Notes: generated by a model from the sequence alone, not told the origin. A DNA stretch of 12,066 bases from Suipraeoptans sp. (GCA_047973235.1 JBKEBP010000032.1:1-12066), one strand, 5' to 3'. Positions 1 through 12,066 are shown, counted from the stretch's first letter. Translations and numbers: made by a program.

Positions 1-105
1 ATATCCGAAAGAGTATTTATCTGTGAGTGTGGTAATATAATGGATAGAGATATAAATGCTGCAATAAATATAAGAGAAGAAGGTAAAAGATTAGTAAGTG
101 CGTAA
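1..105 (+). CDS. tnpB: 3' end of an IS200/IS605-family TnpB (OrfB) transposase-associated RNA-guided nuclease; the gene continues upstream of the window. Frame 1 reads ...ISERVFICECGNIMDRDINAAINIREEGKRLVSA*
   Basis: C-terminal CxxC zinc-finger half (CECG) followed by the RuvC-III-like motif DRDINAAINI, which is characteristic of TnpB C-termini. Stop TAA at 103-105. AT-rich like the right half of the window. Confidence 0.78.
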   Translation: MSERVFICECGNIMDRDINAAINIREEGKRLVSA

Positions 106-235
106 CTGCACAAAATAATAAAGGAACCGCAGGGCATGCGGGGATAGCTTGTTAACACTTATCCCACTAGGGATATAACACAAGAAGCTCCCACTTCATA
201 AAGCATTGGCTTTAAGTGGTGAGAGTATGTCACAA
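20..235 (+). ncRNA. Putative TnpB omega-RNA (reRNA) scaffold overlapping the tnpB 3' end and the right end. The guide segment would lie at about 220-240.
   Basis: Established TnpB biology places the omega-RNA over the last ~100-150 nt of tnpB plus the RE. Consecutive hairpins at 127-141, 141-165 and 191-219 are consistent with a structured scaffold. Boundaries are approximate and not verified. Confidence 0.3.
152..179 (+). promoter_or_regulatory. Candidate sigma-70-type promoter inside the IS right end that could drive the downstream operon (-35 TTAACA 152-157, 16-nt spacer, -10 TATAAC 174-179)
   Basis: Hexamer matches 5/6 and 5/6 with a 16-nt spacer. It is the only reasonable promoter-like match between the tnpB stop and the first operon gene. 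Confidence 0.25.
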
Positions 236-261
236 TGCAGACAGGATGGATTGAATTAACT

Positions 262-2799
262 ATGCAAATATTTAAATGCAAAATGTGTGGTGATGATCTG
301 AATGTGATAGAGGATCAAAACTGCGGTACCTGCGAGTCATGTGGCTCGACCATGACACTACCGTCGAGTGCCGACGAACGAAAAACCAATCTTTTTAACC
401 GTGCCAATCACTATCGTCGATTGGGCGATTTCGATAAGGCACTGACTGCATACGAAAATATTCTTGCTGACGATTTCGCTGAGGCTGAGGCGCATTGGGG
501 AGTGGTTTTGTGCCGATTCGGCATTGAGTATGTCGAAGATTTGACAAGTGGCGAGCGCATACCTACAGTCAACCGTATGCAGCTAACCTCTGTGCTCAGT
601 GATTCTGATTATCTCGCCACCCTAGAGCATGCACCGGACAACTACACTAGGGAGCTATATGAAAAAGAAGGCTCTGCTATTGCCAACATCCAAAAGGGCA
701 TTTTGGCTGTGTCTCAAGGTGAAGACCCATATGATATTTTTATTTGCTATAAGGAATCTTCCGACAGTGGTACGCGTACCAAAGACAGCGTGCGGGCTCA
801 GGAAATATATCACGCGCTAACCAATGCCGGATATCGCGTGTTTTTTTCACGCATTTCTCTTGAAGATAAGGTCGGACGGGAGTATGAGCCTTACATATTT
901 GCTGCTCTTAGTTCAGCCAAGGTCATGCTTGTTGTCGGTACTCAGGCAGCACATTTTAATGCCGCCTGGGTAAAAAACGAATGGAGTCGTTATCTAGCAC
1001 TTATGAAAAACGACCACAGCCGATTGCTCATTCCCTGCTATCAGGACATGGATGTCTATGATATCTCAGAGGAGCTTTCGATGCTACAGGCACAGGACAT
1101 GGGCAAGCTGGGATTTATTCAGGATTTGCTGCATGGCATTGAGAAAGTACTTAAGAGTGGAACTTCGGAGCCACCAGTCGAAGCCGCTGCATCTGTAATC
1201 GCGGCAGTGCCGGGAGTTGAATCTCTCTGCGAACGAGGTCTGTTATTCTTAGAAGAGGGGGATTTTGAGCAAGCGGATTGGTATTTTGAAAGGGCACTGG
1301 ATATTGAGCCTAGACATGCACCGGCTTATGTTGGCAAGCTCTGTGCAGAGCTTAAGGTTAAAAAAGAACAGGACCTACCCGTTGCAGCTGCAGTTTCACA
1401 TTCAATTGAAAATAGCTCAAATTACAACAGGGCACTTCGTTTTGCCGACGAAGATCTGCGTTCGCGATTAGAGGACTATGCAAAAGAGTCGGCACTGCTT
1501 AAAGATTACAATGCAGCACTTGCTCTGTTTGAGGATAGAAAATACGACGAGGCATTTTTGACTTTTCAATCTCTTGGAAATTATAAGGATAGTGAGGAGC
1601 GAGTTGCAGTTTTTACAGATGCTGTTGAAACGAGGAAGGCGGATACCTATCAATGTGCAGAGGATTTACTTGCTGATGGCAGCTACATTGGTGCCGCAAT
1701 AAAGTTTTCATCTCTAGGAAAATATCGTGACGCGTCTGCTAGGGCAGACAAGTTTGTAAAGCAGTGGAGGCTGGACTTGGCTGAAACGGTCGCTGCCGAT
1801 GGCGATCATACAGTTATGTTGAGGTCAGATGGCACAGTCATTGCTATTGGCGAAAATAAAGACGGCCAATGTAATACAAGTGACTGGTCGGATATTGTGG
1901 GGATTGCAGCGGGGTATCGCCACACTGTGGGTCTAAAAAATGATGGAACAGTGGTGGCTGTTGGTCAAGATGCTTTTGACACCTGCAATGTTACAGGCTG
2001 GACGGATATTGTGGCAGTTTCTGCAGGAAAGAATCATACAGTGGGATTAAAAGCTGACGGAACAGTGATAGCTGTTGGCAATAATGATTCTGACCGGTGT
2101 AATGTGGATGACTGGTCAGATATTGTGGCAGTTTCTGCAGGATCGCATCATACAGTGGGTCTAAAAGCTGACGGAACAGTGGTAGCAGTTGGCACTGGTG
2201 GAAACAGTCAGTGTGAGGTAACCGACTGGATGAGTATTGTGGCAGTTTCTGCAGGAGAGGGTCATACAGTGGGATTAAAAGCTGATGGAACAGCGGTAGC
2301 AGTTGGCAAAAATATCTTTGATCAGTGTGAGGTGACCAACTGGACGGATATTGTGGCGATTTCTGCAGGATCCAAACCGTCAATTGGCTTAAAATCAGAT
2401 GGTACGGTTGTTGCTGCCGGCGGGGTTGCTTGGGACCAGAGTGATGTGGATGCCTGGACGGGTATTGCAGCAATTTCAGCAGGAACACATCATGCAGTGG
2501 GATTAAGAGCCGATGGAACAGCGGTAGCAGTTGGCAAAAATATCTTTGAACAGTGCGAGGTGACTGACTGGACGGGTATTATGGTATACAATAAAAAAAA
2601 TATAAATATAGCAAAACTAGTGGCTGCAGAAGCCGTGAAAAAGACAGGGCTAAACGCTGCAGAGACAGTAAAAAATAAAGAATTAGAGACCACAAAGTCC
2701 GCAAAAAAATGGAAAGACGCCGGCCTGTGCCGCCACTGCGGCGGGAGAATAGGCGGACTGTTGATTAAAAAATGCAAGGCATGCGGCGAGACGCAGTAA
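262..2799 (+). CDS. Multidomain TIR-domain protein. Layout: N-terminal zinc ribbon (CKMCG...CGTCESCG), helical linker, TIR domain (about nt 733-1150, DIFICYKESSDSG...WVKNEW), TPR-like helical repeats (about 1220-1790), seven-blade RCC1-like beta-propeller (1798-2580), Lys-rich linker, C-terminal zinc ribbon (CRHCGG...CKACG). Predicted NAD+-consuming immune-type effector fused to repeat sensor domains.
   Basis: Long ORF in the track (235-2799). I place the start at ATG 262 (MQIFKCKMCGDD), just before the zinc ribbon; 235 is possible but lies inside the IS-end hairpin region. The TIR hallmark motifs include a Glu (codon 979-981, in KNEW) at the position of the catalytic glutamate. Seven ~38-aa repeats of the form xHTVGLKADGTVVAVGxNxxxQCxVxDWxDIVAVSAG are RCC1-like blades. 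Coding sequence is GC-rich. Confidence 0.9.
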   Translation: MQIFKCKMCGDDLNVIEDQNCGTCESCGSTMTLPSSADERKTNLFNRANHYRRLGDFDKALTAYENILADDFAEAEAHWGVVLCRFGIEYVEDLTSGERIPTVNRMQLTSVLSDSDYLATLEHAPDNYTRELYEKEGSAIANIQKGILAVSQGEDPYDIFICYKESSDSGTRTKDSVRAQEIYHALTNAGYRVFFSRISLEDKVGREYEPYIFAALSSAKVMLVVGTQAAHFNAAWVKNEWSRYLALMKNDHSRLLIPCYQDMDVYDISEELSMLQAQDMGKLGFIQDLLHGIEKVLKSGTSEPPVEAAASVIAAVPGVESLCERGLLFLEEGDFEQADWYFERALDIEPRHAPAYVGKLCAELKVKKEQDLPVAAAVSHSIENSSNYNRALRFADEDLRSRLEDYAKESALLKDYNAALALFEDRKYDEAFLTFQSLGNYKDSEERVAVFTDAVETRKADTYQCAEDLLADGSYIGAAIKFSSLGKYRDASARADKFVKQWRLDLAETVAADGDHTVMLRSDGTVIAIGENKDGQCNTSDWSDIVGIAAGYRHTVGLKNDGTVVAVGQDAFDTCNVTGWTDIVAVSAGKNHTVGLKADGTVIAVGNNDSDRCNVDDWSDIVAVSAGSHHTVGLKADGTVVAVGTGGNSQCEVTDWMSIVAVSAGEGHTVGLKADGTAVAVGKNIFDQCEVTNWTDIVAISAGSKPSIGLKSDGTVVAAGGVAWDQSDVDAWTGIAAISAGTHHAVGLRADGTAVAVGKNIFEQCEVTDWTGIMVYNKKNINIAKLVAAEAVKKTGLNAAETVKNKELETTKSAKKWKDAGLCRHCGGRIGGLLIKKCKACGETQ
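1798..2580 (+). repeat. Seven tandem 114-bp (38-codon) coding repeats encoding the RCC1-like propeller blades. Long identical DNA stretches recur between units (e.g. attgtggcagtttctgcagga three times; ggaacagcggtagcagttggcaaaaatatctttga in units 5 and 7).
   Basis: Direct reading of the nucleotide and protein periodicity. The spurious antisense ORFs 1991-2488 and 2490-2804 are by-products of this repeat. Confidence 0.85.
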
Positions 2800-2835
2800 T
2801 TCATCTAGTTATAAAACACAAAGGAGGGGATAAAT

Positions 2836-4290
2836 ATGTCAAAAATCGTAATCAAATGCCCACAATGCAATGTAGAGGTTAATACAGATGTAAGTGCCAG
2901 TGCATACGAATGCCCAATCTGCAATCAGAATATTGATGTTCAGGCACAGATTGCCAAAATGCGCATCTCTAAAGAAGGGCTTGTCTCTATAGTTAAATAC
3001 GAGGGTGGAAATAACACCTTTGTCTGGAAACACCCTATTGAGGACTTCAATCTGGGCAGCCAGCTTATCGTCCACGAGTCGCAGGAGGCCCTGTTCTTCC
3101 GCGACGGCCAGGCCCTAGATCTCTTTGGTGCGGGACGATACACATTAGAGACACAGAATCTACCGCTGTTGGAAAAAATCTATCGGCTCCCCACAGGAGG
3201 GGAGACTCCGTTCCACGCGGAAGTATATTTCATAAATAAAACAGTCCAAATGGGCATTAAATGGGGCACAGATAGCAAGGAGCGTATGTTTGACCCCATC
3301 TCCGGTTTGCATATCGATATCGGTGCGTCGGGCGAGTTTAACCTGCGAGTGGCTGATTCTCGCAAGCTAGTATTGAAGCTTGTGGGTACCGCCGGTGGGT
3401 TAGAGCGTGGCGAGTTGTTGTCTATGGGCAAAAGCGACGGAAATTCAAATGGTATGCAGGGATATTTCCGGGCACTCATCATGACGCAGGTGAAAACCCA
3501 TCTCGCGCAAAGCATCAAGGCACAGAGTATCAACATTCTGGAGATAGATGCTAAGCTTACAGAGCTTTCACAAGCGCTTAAGGATCAGGTTAACGCAGGT
3601 CTTGAGGAATATGGACTGACTATGCCTGAGTTTTTTGTGGTACGTGTTGTTACGCCTGATGACGATTCAAACTTCAAGCGTATGAAGCAGCAATACGCTG
3701 ATCAGTATTTGAAAATCCGTGAAGAGCAAATAAGAAAAACCGAAGCTGAGGCTGCTGCAGAGCGCAAACTGGTAGAAGCCGAAACTGAGGCGCGCATGAA
3801 AATTGTGGGTGCTAAGGGCGAGGCCGAGACCTACCGCCTGCAAGCTGAGGTAGAAGCTAAAGAAATGCAGATGAAGGGATACACCTATCAGCAGGAGACA
3901 TCCCGTCAAGTGGGCATGGAAGCCATGAAGAACGGTATCGCAGGCGAAGGCGGCGGTGGATCGGGTGGTGTACTGGGCGATGTTGCAGGTCTGGGTATTG
4001 CGCTAGGTGCTATGGGCGGCGTGGTAGGCATGACTAAGGACGCGCTTAATCCCATGATAGATGGTAGTCTGCAAAACACTATGGGTGGTGTGGTTACCAA
4101 TAACGCCTCAGAGGGGACGGCTAGAGGCTGGTCCTGCCCAGCATGTGGTAAAACTGAAAACATTTCAAATTTCTGTGGTGAGTGTGGTGCAAAGCGTCCG
4201 GAAACATCATCCGGTTGGGCGTGTAACTGTGGTCAAAATGGTATTACCAGCAAGTTCTGCCCCGAATGTGGAACGAAGCGACCGGAATAG
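2836..4290 (+). CDS. SPFH/Band-7 family protein of the COG4260 type (YdjI-like, 'putative virion core protein' family). Carries an N-terminal zinc ribbon (CPQC...CPIC), central SPFH domain, Ala/Glu-rich coiled coil, Gly-rich hydrophobic segment and two duplicated C-terminal zinc ribbons (CPACG..FCGECGAKRPE and CNCG..FCPECGTKRPE).
   Basis: Strong RBS AGGAGGGG 6 nt upstream of ATG 2836, 36 nt after the gene-1 stop. The N-terminal region (VKYEGGNNTFVWKHPIEDFNLGSQLIVHESQEALFFRDGQALD...) and the coiled-coil/zinc-ribbon layout match PF13421/COG4260 proteins as I remember them. Confidence 0.88.
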   Translation: MSKIVIKCPQCNVEVNTDVSASAYECPICNQNIDVQAQIAKMRISKEGLVSIVKYEGGNNTFVWKHPIEDFNLGSQLIVHESQEALFFRDGQALDLFGAGRYTLETQNLPLLEKIYRLPTGGETPFHAEVYFINKTVQMGIKWGTDSKERMFDPISGLHIDIGASGEFNLRVADSRKLVLKLVGTAGGLERGELLSMGKSDGNSNGMQGYFRALIMTQVKTHLAQSIKAQSINILEIDAKLTELSQALKDQVNAGLEEYGLTMPEFFVVRVVTPDDDSNFKRMKQQYADQYLKIREEQIRKTEAEAAAERKLVEAETEARMKIVGAKGEAETYRLQAEVEAKEMQMKGYTYQQETSRQVGMEAMKNGIAGEGGGGSGGVLGDVAGLGIALGAMGGVVGMTKDALNPMIDGSLQNTMGGVVTNNASEGTARGWSCPACGKTENISNFCGECGAKRPETSSGWACNCGQNGITSKFCPECGTKRPE

Positions 4291-4301
4291 AGGAGGATAA
4301 G

Positions 4302-4973
4302 ATGAAGTTGAATATAAAAAAGTCATTTTGGTATGTGCTTGGTCTCGTGACTGTCATATATTTGGTGATAAGCCTTGCAATACCATTCAATAAAACAGCG
4401 ACCTACTGGCTTGCATTTGCCTTTGGGCTTATCGCGCTTGCGGCACAGATTATCTTTTTTAGGAATGCCTTTGATGGAGCGGAGAAGGTCATTAGCAAGC
4501 TATATGGCTTTCCGATTGCTCGTGTTGGTCTGATTTATCTTGTGGTGCAGGTTGCTATCAGCTTTATAATTATGACCTTTGCCGCGAGTTGTCCATTGTG
4601 GGTGTCAGTGTTACTTGGCATTGTGTTGGCCGCCTTGGCGGGCATTGGACTTACCGGCACTGTGGTTAGTCGTAAGGCGGTAGAAAAGCGTGAAGCACAG
4701 ATTGTCTCCGATAAAACGGACATCATGAAGCAGCTTCGAGCTGAAGCTGAGTCATTTGCCAAATTTGCACCAGAGGAGCTGCGCGTTGAAGCGGGAAAGC
4801 TTGCTGAAGCCATTCGTTACAGTGATCCCGTGACGACTGATGCGTTACAAGAAACAGATACTGCCCTTCTCGTGGTAATGCGCGAGCTGCAGGTGAATAG
4901 TAATGCAGATTCAGTGTTGGCATTTTCAAAAAAATTAGAGGAACGAAATATACGCTGTAAAGCGCTGAAATGA
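4302..4973 (+). CDS. Small integral membrane protein with four predicted TM helices and an ~90-aa cytoplasmic helical C-terminal domain; third gene of the operon
   Basis: RBS AGGAGG 5 nt upstream of ATG 4302, 12 nt after the SPFH stop. The ORF track starts earlier at 4266 in the same frame, but the RBS supports 4302. Hydrophobic segments are FWYVLGLVTVIYLVISLAI, YWLAFAFGLIALAAQIIFF, IARVGLIYLVVQVAISFIIMTF and LWVSVLLGIVLAALAGIGL. Confidence 0.8.
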   Translation: MKLNIKKSFWYVLGLVTVIYLVISLAIPFNKTATYWLAFAFGLIALAAQIIFFRNAFDGAEKVISKLYGFPIARVGLIYLVVQVAISFIIMTFAASCPLWVSVLLGIVLAALAGIGLTGTVVSRKAVEKREAQIVSDKTDIMKQLRAEAESFAKFAPEELRVEAGKLAEAIRYSDPVTTDALQETDTALLVVMRELQVNSNADSVLAFSKKLEERNIRCKALK

Positions 4974-5002
4974 AGGCGAAGCATGAGATAATATGTTTCT
5001 AA

Positions 5003-5048
5003 AAAGCCGATTGATTTTCGATATTGAAAATCAGTCGGCTTTTCTCTC
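5003..5048 (+). terminator. Rho-independent terminator closing the three-gene operon
   Basis: 16-bp stem AAGCCGATTGATTTTC / GAAAATCAGTCGGCTT with one G-U pair and loop GATATT, followed by TTTTCTCTC. Confidence 0.7.
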
Positions 5049-5069
5049 ATAGTCACAAGTGAAATTTCA

Positions 5070-5099
5070 TTTACATATATAACAAGTGTATTGTACAAT
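5070..5099 (+). promoter_or_regulatory. Possible promoter of the glycyl-radical-enzyme operon (-35 TTTACA 5070-5075, 18-nt spacer, -10 TACAAT 5094-5099)
   Basis: Hexamer matches only. AT-rich background makes this weak. Confidence 0.2.
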
Positions 5100-5145
5100 A
5101 ATTGAAAAGAAAACTGATTATCGTGAAATGATAGGAGGATTTGTT

Positions 5146-7518
5146 ATGAGCAGTACGAAAAGAATAGAGCGCTTGAGGCAAGAATATATTAATTCTAAGC
5201 CAGCTATTTGTTATGAGAGAGCACGTATATATACAGAGTCACATAAAAGAACAGAGGGAAAGCCGATAGCAATCAGAAGAGCACAAGCATTTTATGATTT
5301 TTGCAATGAGTTTAAATGCAAGATTTTCGACGATGAATTGATAGTCGGGACAGCCGGGAAATTTAGAAGGTCCGGGATATTAACACCTGAGTACTCTTGG
5401 ATGTGGGTGGACAGAGAGATGGATGATTTTGATAAACGTCCACAAGATCCATATATGATGACAAAGGACCAAATACGATACGTTAGAGAAGAAATCTTTC
5501 CTTATTGGGAGGGGAAGTCGTTAGAAGAACACTTTCTGGCACGACTGCCTAAGAGCACTGCAAAACTCGCGATAGATACTGGAATTATAGATAATGATTC
5601 GAAATGGCGTCAGGCAGTTGGTGAGATAACGCCTGATTATCAGGATATACTGTTTGTTAAAGGATTTGCAGGAATAAAAGATGAAGCTAAGGCTAAGCTA
5701 AAACAACTCGATTATTCTGACAGTGATGATTATGACAGAGCGATTTTTTACAAGTCTGTTATCTTAGTTAGTGAAGGCATTATAACATTTGCTAAGAAAT
5801 ATTCTGAGGAAGCAGCAAAACTTGCAGAAAAAGAAAATGATATAAAAAGAAAAGAAGAGCTAATAAGAATAAGTGAAGTGTGTAGTAAAGTTCCAGCAAA
5901 TCCTCCCCAAAGTTTTCATGAAGCAATTCAATTTGTATGGTTCACACAGTTAGGAGGAATTATTTCAGAGAATCCTCTGGCGCTAAATCCGGGACGATTT
6001 GATCAGTATATGTATCCATACTATAAAACGGATATAGAGTCGAATAAATTAAACGAAACTGATGCAATGGAGTATATAGAGGCTTTATGGCTCAAGTTTT
6101 CAGAGTGGGTATGGACGATATCATCGAATACTGCCGGTTTTTTTGCAGGATATAACCAATTTCAGAATTTAACCATAGGAGGAAGAACCAGAGAAGGCTT
6201 TGATGCAACTAATGAATTATCATATATGTGCCTTGATGCTACAGACAGTGTAAGAACTCACCAACCGGGATTGAGCGTTAGAATTCACAGTGATTGTCCA
6301 AGTGAGTTTCTAGATGCAGTTTGTAAACTGGTTAGTAAAGGGACAGGGTTTCCTGCGATACATAACGACCAAGCGGGTACCCAGATGCTCCTACAGGCAG
6401 GGTACGAGCCGGAAGATGCAAGGGATTGGAATAATTGCGGATGTGTAGTACCACATTTTAGAAAAACAGGTGAATGGACATCGGCTGTTAATGTGAATTT
6501 TGGTGCAGCGCTTGAGTATTCGCTAAACAGCGGCAGAAGTAGAATTACCAATGAAGTGATGGGAATAACAACAAATGAAATAGATGAGTATGAAGATTTT
6601 GATGAGGTGAAAAATGCATTTTTACTTGAACTTGATAATTTGATACATCATTCTGTAGTCGCAAGCATTGCCGCACAGAAATTACACCAAGAGATGGTTC
6701 CACGACCGTTTTTATCATCTTGTGTTGATGATTGTTTGCAAACGGGAGTTGATTTGAGTAATGGAGGAGCACACTATAATGTAGGTCCTGTTCTTACCGG
6801 TATAGGATTAGCAATAACTGCAAATTCTCTTGCTGTTATTAAAAAACTTGTATTTGAAGAGAAGAAAACCACACTTAGTGAATTAAATGATGCAATGAAT
6901 AAAAACTGGGAAGGCTATGAAGAACTAAGACGCCTAGTACTCAAAGTTCCTAAGTATGGAAATGACAATGATTATGTCGATAGTATTGCAGTTGAAATCT
7001 CAAACTATTATTATAGAAATATTAGAAAACATAAAGATATATTCGGATCTAATTTTAATAGTGCTTTCATGGGAATATCCAATTATATACCAACTGGCAG
7101 AGTAATCGGAGCTACGCCTGATGGACGAAGAGCGGGTGAACCATTGACGGAAGGTGTTTCACCATATGCCGGAAGTGATGTAGAAACGCCTTTAGCGGCA
7201 ATGCGCTCAAGTGCAAAGGTAAATCATGATGTACACACGGGAGGCACACTTCTTAACTTAAGATTAGGTGAAGATATGGTATCTACAAACCGTGGAAGAA
7301 GAAACTTAGGTGCGATGATTCAAGCATATTTTTCACTTGGAGCATTTCATGTGCAATTTAATACAGTATCTACAGATACACTTTTAAAAGCGCAAAAAAA
7401 TCCTGAAGATTATAAAGCTCTTTTAGTTAGGGTTGCAGGATATAGCACTCAGTTTGTCAACCTGTCTAAAGAAATGCAGGATGGCATCATAGTAAGAACA
7501 GCACATGAAAAGTTCTAA
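5146..7518 (+). CDS. Glycyl radical enzyme of the PFL2/glycerol-dehydratase/CutC/HypD fold with unassigned substrate. Glycyl-radical motif RVAGYS (Gly codon 7438-7440). Cys loop WNNCGCVVP (Cys codons 6436-6438 and 6442-6444) lacks the Glu at Cys+2 typical of dehydratase/lyase members.
   Basis: N-terminal ERLRQEYINSKPAICYERARIYTESHKRTEGKPIAIRRAQA, internal GATPDGRRAGEP, and C-terminal LLVRVAGYSTQFVNLSKEMQDGIIVRTAHEKF are family hallmarks. Start chosen at ATG 5146 (RBS AGGAGG 5134-5139) rather than the track's 5086. Confidence 0.9.
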   Translation: MSSTKRIERLRQEYINSKPAICYERARIYTESHKRTEGKPIAIRRAQAFYDFCNEFKCKIFDDELIVGTAGKFRRSGILTPEYSWMWVDREMDDFDKRPQDPYMMTKDQIRYVREEIFPYWEGKSLEEHFLARLPKSTAKLAIDTGIIDNDSKWRQAVGEITPDYQDILFVKGFAGIKDEAKAKLKQLDYSDSDDYDRAIFYKSVILVSEGIITFAKKYSEEAAKLAEKENDIKRKEELIRISEVCSKVPANPPQSFHEAIQFVWFTQLGGIISENPLALNPGRFDQYMYPYYKTDIESNKLNETDAMEYIEALWLKFSEWVWTISSNTAGFFAGYNQFQNLTIGGRTREGFDATNELSYMCLDATDSVRTHQPGLSVRIHSDCPSEFLDAVCKLVSKGTGFPAIHNDQAGTQMLLQAGYEPEDARDWNNCGCVVPHFRKTGEWTSAVNVNFGAALEYSLNSGRSRITNEVMGITTNEIDEYEDFDEVKNAFLLELDNLIHHSVVASIAAQKLHQEMVPRPFLSSCVDDCLQTGVDLSNGGAHYNVGPVLTGIGLAITANSLAVIKKLVFEEKKTTLSELNDAMNKNWEGYEELRRLVLKVPKYGNDNDYVDSIAVEISNYYYRNIRKHKDIFGSNFNSAFMGISNYIPTGRVIGATPDGRRAGEPLTEGVSPYAGSDVETPLAAMRSSAKVNHDVHTGGTLLNLRLGEDMVSTNRGRRNLGAMIQAYFSLGAFHVQFNTVSTDTLLKAQKNPEDYKALLVRVAGYSTQFVNLSKEMQDGIIVRTAHEKF

Positions 7519-7557
7519 CATAGAAGAGTTTTTATAGAGAAGAGTTTGAGGTAAAAA

Positions 7558-8466
7558 ATGAAAACAGTGCAAGACAAAGGCATGATACTTCAGATGCAGA
7601 ACCTTTCAGTTAATGATGGAGAGGGTATACGAACAACTATTTTTATGGCAGGTTGTCCTCTTAGATGCAAATGGTGTTCCAACCCTGAAAGCTTTACGAT
7701 AAAAAGAAAAGTGGCTGTATATCAATCAGAATGTATTAAATGTGAAAGGTGTAAAGATATATGTCCTTCTAATTTGTACATAAGTGAAAACAGAGCAGAT
7801 GAGAAACAGTGTATGCTCTGTGGAGCATGCGTAGAGAGTTGTCCGACACATGCTATCGAAATTATGAATGAGCAAATTTCTATAGATGACATAGTTAAAA
7901 GAATTGAAAGAGAAGAGCTTTTCTTTAGATATTCAAATGGTGGTGTGACATTTTCCGGTGGTGAAGCTACATTTCAGGAAGGATTTCTTAGAAGTATCGT
8001 TGACAGATTATATGAAAGAAATACTTCAATGTGGCTTGAAACTTGTGGGTATTTTGATTTTAATAGTTGCCGAGATATACTAGAGAAGCTCGACCATGTA
8101 TTTTTTGATATAAAGACTATGGATAGTACAAAGCACAAAGAGTATACCGGTGTTGATAACAAGTCAATTCTTGAAAATGCTAAGCATATATATGAGTTAA
8201 ATATTCCGATGACTATACGAGTCCCGTTAGTAAAACATATAAATGATAATGATGAAAACATTTATATGCTGTCATCATTTATTAGAGAGAATATTCCAAA
8301 TGCTGATATTGAAATATTACCGTATCATAATCTTGGTCTTATGAAATATAAGGCATTGGGGTATGAAGAACTTATAAATGAATACGAAACACCGGATGCC
8401 AAAAGAATTAGTGAAATATATAAAATATTCAGTACACACGATGTGAAAAGTGTTGAATACCGCTAA
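7558..8466 (+). CDS. Glycyl-radical-enzyme activating enzyme (radical SAM) with two additional ferredoxin-like 4Fe-4S motifs
   Basis: CPLRCKWC radical-SAM CxxxCxxC near the N-terminus, plus CIKCERCKDICP and CMLCGACVESCP. It lies 39 nt downstream of the GRE with RBS GAGGT. The ~300-aa size is typical of GD/CutD-type activases. Confidence 0.9.
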   Translation: MKTVQDKGMILQMQNLSVNDGEGIRTTIFMAGCPLRCKWCSNPESFTIKRKVAVYQSECIKCERCKDICPSNLYISENRADEKQCMLCGACVESCPTHAIEIMNEQISIDDIVKRIEREELFFRYSNGGVTFSGGEATFQEGFLRSIVDRLYERNTSMWLETCGYFDFNSCRDILEKLDHVFFDIKTMDSTKHKEYTGVDNKSILENAKHIYELNIPMTIRVPLVKHINDNDENIYMLSSFIRENIPNADIEILPYHNLGLMKYKALGYEELINEYETPDAKRISEIYKIFSTHDVKSVEYR

Positions 8467-8514
8467 AAATTAGAGAAAATATTATAATAATAACAAAAGG
8501 GATGAGGAAGAACA

Positions 8515-9363
8515 TTAGGTAAGCAGGTGCAAGTGATTTTCAAAGTTAACGCCATCGTTACCGGGAATGTTTTCTTGCGTTGAATCTTCCAATGAATGAT
8601 ATATAAAATCACCTGCAACTCTAATGCATTCGTCTACGGACTTTCCTTTAGCAATACCACCGGCTATGCATGAGGCGAATAAGTCCCCGGTACCGGAATA
8701 GCTTTTGCCTACATATGGAAATGAGAAGAAAGCAAAAGACTCACTAGTAACATGAAGGTTTCCCATATGGGCTATACCGACTTCGTTTTCTATTCGAATA
8801 CCGGTTACAATAACATGCTTATTTGAATTATTACAAAGAGACTTAGCGGTCTCTTTGATTTTATTTATTTTAGCGGAAGAATTTGAAATTTCATTAAGTG
8901 AATCGAAATCAGAACCTGTAAGTAAGCATAATTCCGTTAGATTGGGAGTTATAATTGTTGCCATTTTACATAGCTCGACAAGTTCAATACGAAGTGCGTC
9001 GCTGAACAAGCCATGAGTCACGCCATCATCACCCATAACCGGATCAACCAGAAGGAAGGTATCCTTTTTCATGAAAACTGATAGAAATTTCAAAATCTTA
9101 TCAACTTGTTTTTCACTTGCGAGGAAACCGGTATAAATACCATCAAAGTGAGGATTTAGTTTCTTCCATTCGTCTATGAAAATATCCATTTTATCAGTAT
9201 AGTCATCACAGAAATAGCTGTCATAGCCGGTCTGGGAAGTTAATATCGCAGTAGGCAGAGGATAAGCGCTTGCACCCATAGATGAAATTACTGAAATTGC
9301 AGCTACGAGTGAACAACGACCAAAACCTGATAAATCATTTATTACGGCAATTTTTTTTGTCAT
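8515..9363 (-). CDS. pdxK: Pyridoxal/pyridoxamine kinase family protein (PfkB/ribokinase superfamily, PdxY/PdxK-like)
   Basis: 282 aa. It has the N-terminal IAVINDLSGFGRCSLVAAISVISSMG motif and the GTGD-type anion-hole motif (SYSGTGDLFAS) seen in PdxK/PdxY-like kinases. It is convergent with the activase gene. Confidence 0.65.
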   Translation of the reverse strand: MTKKIAVINDLSGFGRCSLVAAISVISSMGASAYPLPTAILTSQTGYDSYFCDDYTDKMDIFIDEWKKLNPHFDGIYTGFLASEKQVDKILKFLSVFMKKDTFLLVDPVMGDDGVTHGLFSDALRIELVELCKMATIITPNLTELCLLTGSDFDSLNEISNSSAKINKIKETAKSLCNNSNKHVIVTGIRIENEVGIAHMGNLHVTSESFAFFSFPYVGKSYSGTGDLFASCIAGGIAKGKSVDECIRVAGDFIYHSLEDSTQENIPGNDGVNFENHLHLLT

Positions 9364-9435
9364 TTGGCAATCCTTTCGAATATCTTAATTATTCATCAAT
9401 ATTACACCAAATTGTTGGATTTGGAAATATACTGA

Positions 9436-9464
9436 TTGAAAAAAATTAAAAATAAGAATAGAAT
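9436..9464 (+). promoter_or_regulatory. Candidate promoter for the sigma-factor gene (-35 TTGAAA 9436-9441, 17-nt spacer, -10 TAGAAT 9459-9464)
   Basis: 5/6 and 5/6 hexamer matches with optimal spacing. The region is AT-rich, so chance matches are possible. Confidence 0.3.
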
Positions 9465-9499
9465 AGGATGTATAAATACTAATAACAAGGAGAAACACA

Positions 9500-10330
9500 A
9501 TGGAAAGAGAAGAACAAGCTTATTTACGAGAAATAGGTGATATTCCTCTTTTAACGGCAGATGAAGAGGTTGAATTGGCAAAAAGAATAGAGCAGGGTGA
9601 TGAAGCAGCTAAAACAAAACTTGAAGAGTCAAATTTGAAACTTGTTGTTTCAATTGCAAAGAAGTACCGTGGAAGAGGACTATCTTTTATGGATTTAATT
9701 CAAGAAGGTAATCTGGGGCTAATTAGAGCAGCAGAAAAATTTGATTACAAAAAGGGATTTAGATTTTCGACATATGCAAACTGGTGGATAAAACAATCTA
9801 TGACTAGAGCAATATTAGATAAATCAAGGACTATAAGGGTACCGGTTCATATGGCTGAAAATATCAATAGAGTATTAAAAGCTTCTAACGAGTTGACGGT
9901 AAATTTGGGCCGCGAGCCTACGCCGGCTGAAATTTCAATACATATGGGGACTAACACAGAACGAGAAGTATGTGACATGCTGGGATATGCACAAGATCCA
10001 CTATCACTTGAAACACCATATGGTGAAGAGGATGATACTAATTTAGAAAGCTTTATTGAGGACGTTAACAGTAGTAACCCCGAACTGGAAATAATGAAGG
10101 GCGTATTACACTCGGAAATAGAAGAAATTCTTGATACTTTGACAGAACGAGAAAAGAAAGTTATCAAAATGAGGTTTGGACTTAATCAAGAGGAGAAGAT
10201 ATATACTCTTGAGGAGGTTGGAAAGGACATAGGTCTTACTAGAGAACGTATTAGGCAGATAGAAAATAGAGCACTACGACAACTAAGAATTAATTTACAA
10301 AAAAGAGATAGTATGAGTGGGTCTTTATAG
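9500..10330 (+). CDS. Sigma-70 family RNA polymerase sigma factor. Regions 1.2-4 are very similar to primary RpoD/SigA, but region 1.1 and the non-conserved insert are absent (276 aa).
   Basis: [41 protein letters not shown] (region 2), a region 3 segment, and [27 protein letters not shown] (region 4.2 HTH). RBS AAGGAG 7 nt upstream. Confidence 0.9.
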
Positions 10331-10351
10331 GGTTATTATGCCGAAAAGCAG

Positions 10352-10380
10352 TTGACACTAGTGAGAAACTAGGATATAAT
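10352..10380 (+). promoter_or_regulatory. Consensus sigma-70 promoter for tRNA-Arg: -35 TTGACA (10352-10357), 17-nt spacer, -10 TATAAT (10375-10380)
   Basis: Perfect 6/6 matches for both hexamers with a 17-nt spacer, about 28 nt upstream of the tRNA 5' end. The spacer contains the palindrome CTAGTgagaaACTAG. Confidence 0.65.
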
Positions 10381-10408
10381 AACTTTTGCTGTTAATTAAG
10401 ATAGCAAT

Positions 10409-12033
<1,625 letters not shown>

Positions 12034-12066
12034 ATATAGACAGTAGAAGTTAAAACATATATAATA

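Follow-up and report, generated by a model that had tools for sequence, protein, structure and literature searches.

A probably horizontally acquired TIR/SPFH operon and candidate anti-phage module in a low-GC Lachnospiraceae contig

Introduction

How did an operon encoding a TIR-domain protein, an SPFH protein and a small membrane protein come to stand out in base composition from the rest of a Suipraeoptans contig, and what might it do there? The contig in question (GCA_047973235.1, JBKEBP010000032.1:1–12066) was analysed over its full length of 12,066 nt, hereafter the window, and belongs to an NCBI metagenome-assembled genome (MAG) labelled Suipraeoptans sp., Lachnospiraceae. On its plus strand, the window carries the 3′ end of a tnpB gene, the three operon genes (g1, g2 and g3), a terminator, a glycyl-radical enzyme (GRE) gene and an activase (AE) gene, followed by a pdxK-like kinase gene on the minus strand, a sigma-70 factor gene, tRNA-Arg(ACG) and glpK. 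Our analysis suggests that nt 234 to ~5049 probably represent a horizontally acquired operon, one copy of a mobile module with a putative role in TIR/SPFH abortive-infection defence. The operon sits in a variable spot beside the conserved glpK-sigma-pdxK backbone of a Lachnospiraceae genome of ~37% guanine–cytosine (GC) content, and its codon usage has yet to drift to that of the host.

Base composition and codon usage

The GC content of nt 235–4973 is 47.0%, as against 36.6% for nt 5051–12066, and the means of 100-nt segments are 0.471 in the island and 0.369 in the right part (Mann–Whitney p=1.3e-13). The host baseline used throughout comprises 7 kb of the same contig plus two relatives (37–38.5% GC) and is thus not a whole genome. 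An earlier account made from the sequence alone (the sequence-only reading) had described nt 106–5050 as a GC-rich island with 48–63% GC inside genes 1–3. The compositional step is real, but these values were too high: 60-nt segments of the island have a median of 46.7% GC (range 30–68%) and fewer than half of them (46%) are at or above 48%. The island is better termed less AT-rich than GC-rich. The values given for other parts of the contig were accurate, namely ~30% for the tnpB fragment at nt 1–105 (measured 29.5%) and 32–40% for the GRE, AE and glpK genes (38.0, 33.4 and 37.9%, respectively), as was the description of the host as a low-GC Firmicutes type, with the right-half backbone genes and the relatives at 37.3–38.5% GC. 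A host of ~50% GC, in which the AT-rich half would be the anomaly, is not what we found, as the backbone genes lie in the low-GC half and the relatives are low-GC. Long antisense open reading frames (ORFs), taken in that account to be spurious, Pro/Gly-rich by-products of high-GC coding sequence, are denser in the island (seven of at least 80 aa in 4.7 kb vs three in 7 kb), but only one of the seven is Pro-rich.

A difference in GC content may reflect the proteins encoded, and the operon could be native to the host, with its composition a property of genes for Gly/Ala-rich repeats and a coiled coil. GC at first codon positions (GC1) is 0.53–0.57 in the island vs 0.42–0.49 in the other genes, as this would predict, and recoding the island with the codon preferences of the other window genes gives an expected 40.7% GC, so that amino-acid content alone lifts the expectation from ~37%. 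However, the observed value is 47.3%, and of the 10.4-point GC excess, ~4 points derive from amino-acid content and ~6.6 from codon choice. Synonymous sites differ strongly, with a GC content at synonymous third positions (GC3s) of 0.422 in the island, 0.249 in the backbone and 0.244 in GRE/AE, while the distance to the backbone in relative synonymous codon usage (RSCU) is 0.145 for the island and 0.083 for GRE/AE.

The same module in other genomes provides a calibration. From 80 metagenomic loci carrying the module, we retained 25 non-redundant loci with at least 6 kb of flanking sequence, in which the difference in GC between module and flank has a mean of 0.000 (standard deviation 0.032, range −0.054 to +0.064). 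Module GC spans 37.6% to 60% and tracks that of the host; in one example, a 37.6% module lies in a 37.8% host. The excess in the window, +0.104, is beyond the range of the 25 other loci, and since those modules match their flanks, the window is an outlier.

The two nearest relatives (L171 and L172; contigs of 37.3–38.5% GC, GC3 ~0.32) keep the glpK-sigma-pdxK order, but past pdxK they have a variable gene and then a NUDIX gene, with neither GRE/AE nor the TIR/SPFH operon at that site. The segment is therefore not one that all relatives carry with host-like codons, an outcome that the sequence-only reading had named as contrary to acquisition: it is not found beside their pdxK, and its GC3s is 0.422 vs 0.249 for the backbone. 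Together with the match between module and flank in the 25 other genomes and the synonymous deviation, the operon-free syntenic site largely refutes a native origin, which we consider very improbable. Rather, the GC and codon deviation, the family calibration and the relatives without the segment mean that horizontal acquisition of the operon into a low-GC host is well supported. Acquisition as one unit, which the sequence-only reading had also proposed, is plausible only, given that the three genes are almost always linked (see below).

The lineage is poorly sampled, since the nearest pdxK-like relatives are just 63–65% identical. Every protein of the window is a singleton at 90% identity, and look-ups of exact proteins returned one other contig only, from the same or a near-identical organism. 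As a side observation, the DNA 3′ of pdxK is different in every genome, which suggests a local variability hotspot.

Boundaries of the island

The maximum-likelihood GC change point falls at ~4895, and 300-nt segments drop from 0.47 to 0.33 between nt 4650 and 5250. This agrees with the abrupt switch at the operon terminator that had been described from the sequence alone, as it coincides with the g3 stop codon (nt 4973) and with an intrinsic terminator on the plus strand (nt 5001–5049). The terminator, which forms the right edge of the island, consists of an A-tract, a perfect 19-bp stem, a 4-nt loop and a U-tract, with the hairpin at nt 5001–5043; its fold has a free energy of −32.2 kcal/mol (z=−5.8), and 0/200 shuffled sequences were equally stable. 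A promoter-like site for GRE follows 3′ of it at nt 5070–5099.

A sharp change of composition in an intergenic region, on a short 12-kb MAG contig that ends in a repeat (the insertion sequence (IS) discussed below), could also arise if DNA of two organisms had been joined near nt 5000 by chimeric assembly or binning. However, a Logan contig from run SRR30067233, built by another assembler, is 100% identical to nt 2520–9324 and runs across the island/GRE junction. The junction contains no repeat able to mislead an assembler, and the signals found there are those of an ordinary gene end and gene start, a terminator and then a promoter-like site. We regard an artefact of this kind as extremely improbable.

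A broader event is conceivable, in which the entire left 8.5 kb (IS, TIR/SPFH operon and GRE/AE) arrived as one larger island. The nearest relatives have neither GRE/AE nor the operon beside pdxK, and the best relatives of the GRE (66–73% identity) are scattered across phyla, coming from Anaerotignum, an alphaproteobacterium (Cohaesibacter) and C. difficile, so the GRE/AE pair looks accessory despite its host-like codons. Those codons stand against a shared transfer, with GC3s and RSCU distance like the backbone (0.244 vs 0.249; 0.083) where the operon deviates (0.145). A GRE-based scan of reference genomes returned 80 loci at no more than 73% identity, none with the pdxK/sigma/glpK backbone or island genes; the operon thus accompanies 0/80 GRE loci, and this GRE was seen at 0/87 operon loci. 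We consider the larger island quite improbable. The accessory look and host-like codon usage of GRE/AE instead point to an older arrival or a donor of similar GC, and not to the transfer that brought the operon.

At the left, the contig begins inside tnpB, and the left end of the element and the rest of the gene lie off the contig. Nucleotides 1–105 (plus strand) encode the last 34 codons of TnpB, covering its RuvC-III/Zn-finger region, and this 34-aa fragment matches TnpB models (NCBIfam guided_TnpB, E=1.7e-5; IS200_TnpB, E=5e-5) at scores under the full-length cut-offs. In a BLASTn analysis, nt 1–240 matched plasmid-borne tnpB genes of Ruminococcus albus and Finegoldia that carry an IS200/IS605 annotation, as well as a human-gut phage contig. 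In a three-way alignment of the window, the IS on R. albus pRUMAL01 and phage contig MT835512, the sequences remain alignable past the tnpB stop codon up to 'GAGnATGTCAC' (nt 223–233), and 3′ of nt 233 the three IS copies diverge completely. The region past the TnpB stop codon at the right end of such elements encodes the omega-RNA scaffold, and conservation is expected there. Nucleotides 1–234 have no match to an omega-RNA or other family in Rfam, and the fold of the right end has a z-score of −2.3, which lends weak support to an omega-RNA scaffold. By its homology to other IS copies, nt 106–233 on the plus strand probably represent the right end of an IS200/IS605-type element, including the expected omega-RNA scaffold region, and not part of the island. 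Because the IS homology stops at nt 233, the island proper starts at nt 234; of the 106–5050 interval first proposed, the right edge holds and the left edge does not. The 16–20 nt immediately 3′ of the IS end (AATGCAGACAGGATGGATTG) would, were the element active, serve as its omega-RNA guide.

The junction between the IS and the island, together with the g1 leader, occupies nt 234–261 (plus strand), placing the right end of the IS 28 nt upstream of the g1 start codon (nt 262). The IS ends so close to g1 that it has displaced the native promoter region and leaves room only for the Shine-Dalgarno-like element AGGATGGA at nt 243–250. No sigma-70-like site was predicted on the plus strand before nt 541, and transcription of the operon probably enters from the IS. 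The IS was considered as the transfer vehicle and rejected: TnpB-only IS200/IS605 elements are not known to mobilise neighbouring operons, and the GC content of the IS (29.5%) is similar to that of the host or lower, which makes a separate insertion more likely. A 31-nt direct match between the coding regions of g1 and the GRE (D3; nt 271–301 vs 5311–5341, 74% identity) was likewise rejected as an att repeat; both copies code for 'FKCK', and the match is taken as chance.

A conserved and mobile three-gene module

Comparison of loci indicates that the module is widespread and mobile and that its three genes appear to form one functional unit. A TIR-TPR gene lies upstream of the SPFH gene on the same strand in 52/53 loci with enough sequence, and a g3-like gene lies downstream of the SPFH gene in 60/62 loci; in the window, g1–g3 follow one another closely on the same strand and share a single terminator. 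Typical gut loci carry one to three TIR/TPR/RCC1 paralogues in tandem, with two or three in many loci, and have a small variable gene (one of them DUF4760) ahead of the SPFH gene; by this comparison the window operon appears to be a minimal or reduced form of a module widespread in gut Firmicutes. Another gene order, helix-turn-helix (HTH)/SPFH/g3/TIR-RCC1, is found in two loci (L085 and L086), and L082 and L085 have a divergent XRE-type regulator. TPR-RCC1 proteins without TIR are encoded beside the SPFH/g3 pair at L084 (nt 1912–3810) and by the first genes of L091, L099 and L139 (~617 aa). The propeller/TPR partner may be the constant element of the module and the TIR domain one of several heads.

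Among 139 flanking ORFs in 26 loci, we found Mob_Pre relaxases (6), DUF6076 proteins (5), resolvases (4), TnpV (4) and YhcG-type nucleases (4), the last being matches to PADLOC candidate PDC-S02. Single loci adjoin AbiH and a Lit-like Peptidase_U49. In one viral contig (L088; IMG/VR UViG_3300031555_010668, nt 4410–13037), the module comprises SPFH, g3-like, 153-aa and TIR/RCC1 genes and directly follows genes for a virion protein, an endolysin and a small serine recombinase of the DNA invertase type, that is, the position of prophage-end cargo. Recombinases of the small serine type are proposed to mark defence loci (PMC13552941).

The first gene, g1 (nt 262–2799, plus strand), encodes an 845-aa protein with matches to Pfam RCC1_2 (4e-41), TIR_2 (1.3e-10) and TPR_1 (2e-10), and more than 8000 close homologues are present in the protein collection, with lengths from ~700 to 1490 aa. 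All of its parts are encoded on the plus strand: an N-terminal Zn ribbon (nt 277–333), the TPR region with the TPR_1 match, the TIR domain (nt ~733–1161), a variable helical/TPR linker, a seven-blade RCC1-type beta-propeller (nt 1762–2649) and a C-terminal Zn ribbon (nt 2728–2784). The NCBI annotation begins g1 at nt 352 (815 aa), cutting off the N-terminal Zn ribbon; as this ribbon (MAIxKCKMCGGDL...) opens the protein in 116/120 homologues, the ATG at nt 262 is the likely true start. The blades of the propeller are encoded by seven 114-nt tandem DNA repeats of 61–78% identity, which could allow gain or loss of blades by recombination.

Median identity among homologues is 66% in the TIR domain, 53% at the N-terminus and 31% in the linker, which aligns in 33/119 homologues; from these alignments, the TIR domain appears to be the best-conserved part of g1 and the linker hypervariable. 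Glu240 of the WVKNEW motif (nt 979–981) is invariant in 39 homologues. In a TIR profile alignment, its counterparts are the Glu residues of 'WCLMEL' (flax L6/L7) and, in a Toll-like receptor (TLR) TIR, of 'WCQYEL'; these matches are weak (E 0.003–0.2). This is the position that we take to be the catalytic Glu of TIR NADases (W-x-x-x-E motif). An alignment-based AlphaFold2 (AF2) model of the TIR domain (predicted local distance difference test (pLDDT) 83, predicted template modelling score (pTM) 0.79) has as its top Foldseek matches in the PDB L7, SARM1, AbTir and SPARTA TIR-APAZ (E 1e-6 to 1e-4). Judged by this model, the g1 TIR domain looks catalytically competent and of NADase type. A PDB sequence search with g1 returned designed TPR proteins only.

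The second gene, g2 (nt 2836–4290, plus strand), encodes a 484-aa SPFH protein of the YdjI/SamI type (Pfam Band_7_1, 1.4e-38) with one Zn ribbon at residues 8–29 and two at its C-terminus (residues 434–480). Between the SPFH domain and a Gly-zipper-like hydrophobic segment (GDVAGLGIALGAMGGVVGM; residues 379–397, nt 3970–4026, plus strand) lies an EA-rich (Glu- and Ala-rich) coiled coil. The Gly-zipper-like segment is the only hydrophobic stretch of g2, which has no N-terminal membrane anchor, and a Gly-rich segment is the most hydrophobic 19-mer in 113/120 g2 homologues and also occurs in distant partners. The segment may insert into membranes or form pores. There are more than 8000 g2 homologues, with a modal length of 620 aa; g2 is the shortest of its family, and other members have more Zn ribbons. 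No relative was found in a PDB sequence search with g2.

The third gene, g3 (nt 4302–4973, plus strand), encodes a 223-aa protein with four N-terminal hydrophobic helices, identified as Kyte–Doolittle segments, and a cytoplasmic helical domain. Its family comprises 1472 representatives at 50% clustering (220–237 aa), with the conserved motifs SKxYGFPIARIG, RYSDPVS and ERNxxCK. g3 has no match in Pfam, NCBIfam, PADLOC or PHROG (the PHROGs scan returned only RCC1-repeat matches and weak lipoprotein matches), and comparison of its profile with the PDB yielded no relative, only coiled-coil noise. A single-sequence AF2 model is all-helical, at a pLDDT of 65 that is too weak for a fold search. On these grounds, g3 appears to be an uncharacterised family of predicted four-transmembrane (4-TM) proteins.

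Beyond the island, the GRE/AE context spans nt 5070–8466 on the plus strand, with GRE at nt 5146–7518 and AE at nt 7558–8466. The GRE passes the cut-off of the PFL2-3 subfamily only and falls under those of CutC, HypD and sulfopropanediol dehydratase. The host backbone follows at nt 8515–12033: the pdxK-like kinase (nt 8515–9363, minus strand), the sigma-70 factor (nt 9500–10330), tRNA-Arg(ACG) (nt 10408–10483), which is the sole match in an Rfam scan of the window, and glpK (nt 10525–12033). The short sigma-70 factor next to glpK is 271–276 aa long in the window and the relatives and is annotated RpoD/SigA.

Relationship to known systems

Three kinds of described system resemble parts of the module. 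The first comprises the TIR-based defence proteins (Thoeris ThsB, SpbK, TIR-NLR/Avs-like proteins and SPARTA TIR-APAZ), with which g1 shares a TIR_2 domain whose catalytic position holds a conserved Glu, a predicted fold nearest that of NAD-cleaving TIRs, fusion of the TIR domain to putative sensors of the repeat type (TPR/beta-propeller) and mobile, defence-like contexts. However, no ThsA-type effector, STAND NTPase, Argonaute or SAVED/STING protein is present here; NCBIfam type III ThcB4 scores 17 bits vs a cut-off of 220, the PADLOC Thoeris models have no match, and SPFH and 4-TM proteins are obligatory partners in no described TIR system. The module is thus a candidate that resembles a TIR-based abortive-infection system and belongs to no described one.

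The second is the B. subtilis YdjI/SamI system with YdjG/YdjH (pspA-ydjGHI), in which YdjG/H recruit YdjI/SamI to the membrane, organising an envelope-stress response (PMC8581546; doi 10.64898/2026.02.06.704340). As in YdjI/SamI, g2 belongs to the Band_7_1 family, has no N-terminal membrane anchor and ends in a low-complexity region and Zn finger, and a gene for a small multi-pass membrane protein, a potential recruiter, adjoins it. Unlike that system, the window and related loci contain no PspA-family gene, homology of g3 to YdjG/H is unsupported (Pfam yields nothing for g3), the third partner throughout is a TIR-TPR-RCC1 protein, and the module is carried on mobile elements, whereas YdjI belongs to the sigma-W stress regulon.

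The third comprises the SPFH cages (HflK/C-FtsH, flotillin and QmcA-NfeD). SPFH proteins with coiled coils form membrane-attached cages (PMC11260169, PMC12005517), and g2 shares with them an SPFH domain and, after it, a long EA-rich coiled coil, the part that builds the cage in those studies. In contrast, g2 lacks an N-terminal transmembrane anchor and an NfeD or FtsH partner, and it has several Zn ribbons and the Gly-zipper-like segment.

Putative function

We lean towards reading the module as an anti-phage defence system because it combines a TIR_2 domain bearing an invariant Glu and an NADase-like fold with a conserved TIR/hypervariable linker pattern, tandem paralogues, AbiH, Lit-like and YhcG neighbours and small serine recombinases. 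The specific mechanism in which a membrane scaffold controls the TIR protein is, by comparison, rather doubtful. In outline, g3 would anchor an oligomeric g2 assembly at the membrane, with g2 acting as a cytosolic SPFH scaffold of the YdjI/SamI type. g1 would be the sensor/effector, held or concentrated by g2/g3, perhaps via the Zn ribbons of g1 and g2. The phage cue could be a protein bound by the propeller/TPR region or a disturbance of the membrane that the SPFH complex senses, and it would let the TIR domains oligomerise; NAD+ cleavage or synthesis of a signal by these domains would then arrest growth of the infected cell (abortive infection). We put forward tentatively that the trio represents a new class of membrane-coupled immunity, in which a g3-anchored SPFH cage sequesters or licenses a TIR NADase and is triggered at the membrane (e.g. 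when the phage genome enters or lysis proteins attack), the Gly-zipper segment being a possible second, membrane-disrupting effector.

The resemblance to YdjGHI/SamGHI admits a different function, that of a horizontally acquired envelope-stress or membrane-organisation module in which the TIR domain serves as a protein-interaction scaffold. The gene for a membrane partner adjoins the SPFH gene, some loci have TIR-less TPR-RCC1 partners, PADLOC has no match and accessory SPFH genes are often horizontally acquired with no known defence role (PMC13086221). However, the module and its surroundings contain neither a pspA nor an ESCRT-III gene, the Glu at the TIR catalytic position is invariant and the fold nearest those of enzymatic TIRs, and neither tandem paralogue expansion with a hypervariable linker nor carriage on prophage ends and mobilisable elements, beside AbiH and Lit-like genes, is in keeping with such a role. 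We therefore consider an envelope-stress module unlikely and retain anti-phage defence as the preferred function. Kaur et al. described Band7-like domains as scaffolds in other conflict systems only (PMC7159879).

Discussion

The locus has several features of genomic and defence islands, including a step in GC and codon usage, an adjoining IS, absence from the syntenic site in relatives and defence-type cargo. A number of observations weigh against a horizontally acquired TIR/SPFH defence operon. Concerning acquisition, the right border alone is defined here, because the contig ends inside the IS at the left. The usual signs of integration differ from those of described islands: the window contains no integrase or recombinase, no flanking direct or att-type repeats, which the sequence-only reading had thought worth looking for, were found at the island edges, and no tRNA lies at those edges, tRNA-Arg being 5.4 kb off with host-like genes between. 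The syntenic site in the relatives is of low resolution as an empty site, given their 63–65% identity in pdxK; no strain-level empty site was found, all window proteins being singletons at 90% identity. No close donor was found either, the best homologues being 74% (g2), 53% (g1) and 47–50% (g3) identical. Amino-acid composition accounts for ~40% of the GC excess. GC3 (0.40 in g1, 0.51 in g2 and 0.46 in g3) and best-homologue identity differ among the three genes, which weakens their transfer as one unit. Concerning function, the defence role rests on guilt by association. PADLOC-DB v2.0.0 gave zero matches at E<=0.01 for g1, g2 and g3, and no description of the system was found in the literature on SPFH with TIR, RCC1 or anti-phage terms, or on DUF4760. 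Some loci, among them L084, have a TPR-RCC1 protein without TIR beside SPFH/g3, and in the neighbour survey, mobility genes outnumber bona fide defence genes. Finally, with its promoter lost to the IS, the operon may be poorly expressed, silenced or rewired in this genome.

As a compositional island, the locus represents ordinary horizontal transfer, now inferred from calibrated evidence. Its cargo, a widespread and uncharacterised TIR/SPFH/membrane module, is the more interesting part. If the proposed role is true, the module would add a membrane-scaffolded branch to TIR-based immunity, assign an SPFH protein to defence for the first time and link envelope-stress machinery of the Psp/YdjI type to TIR immunity. 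Thousands of members of the module family occur in Firmicutes of the human and animal gut; if the module is immune in function, a large set of accessory SPFH proteins from these gut-dominant bacteria would acquire their first function, which would bear on gut phage–bacteria dynamics and phage therapy.

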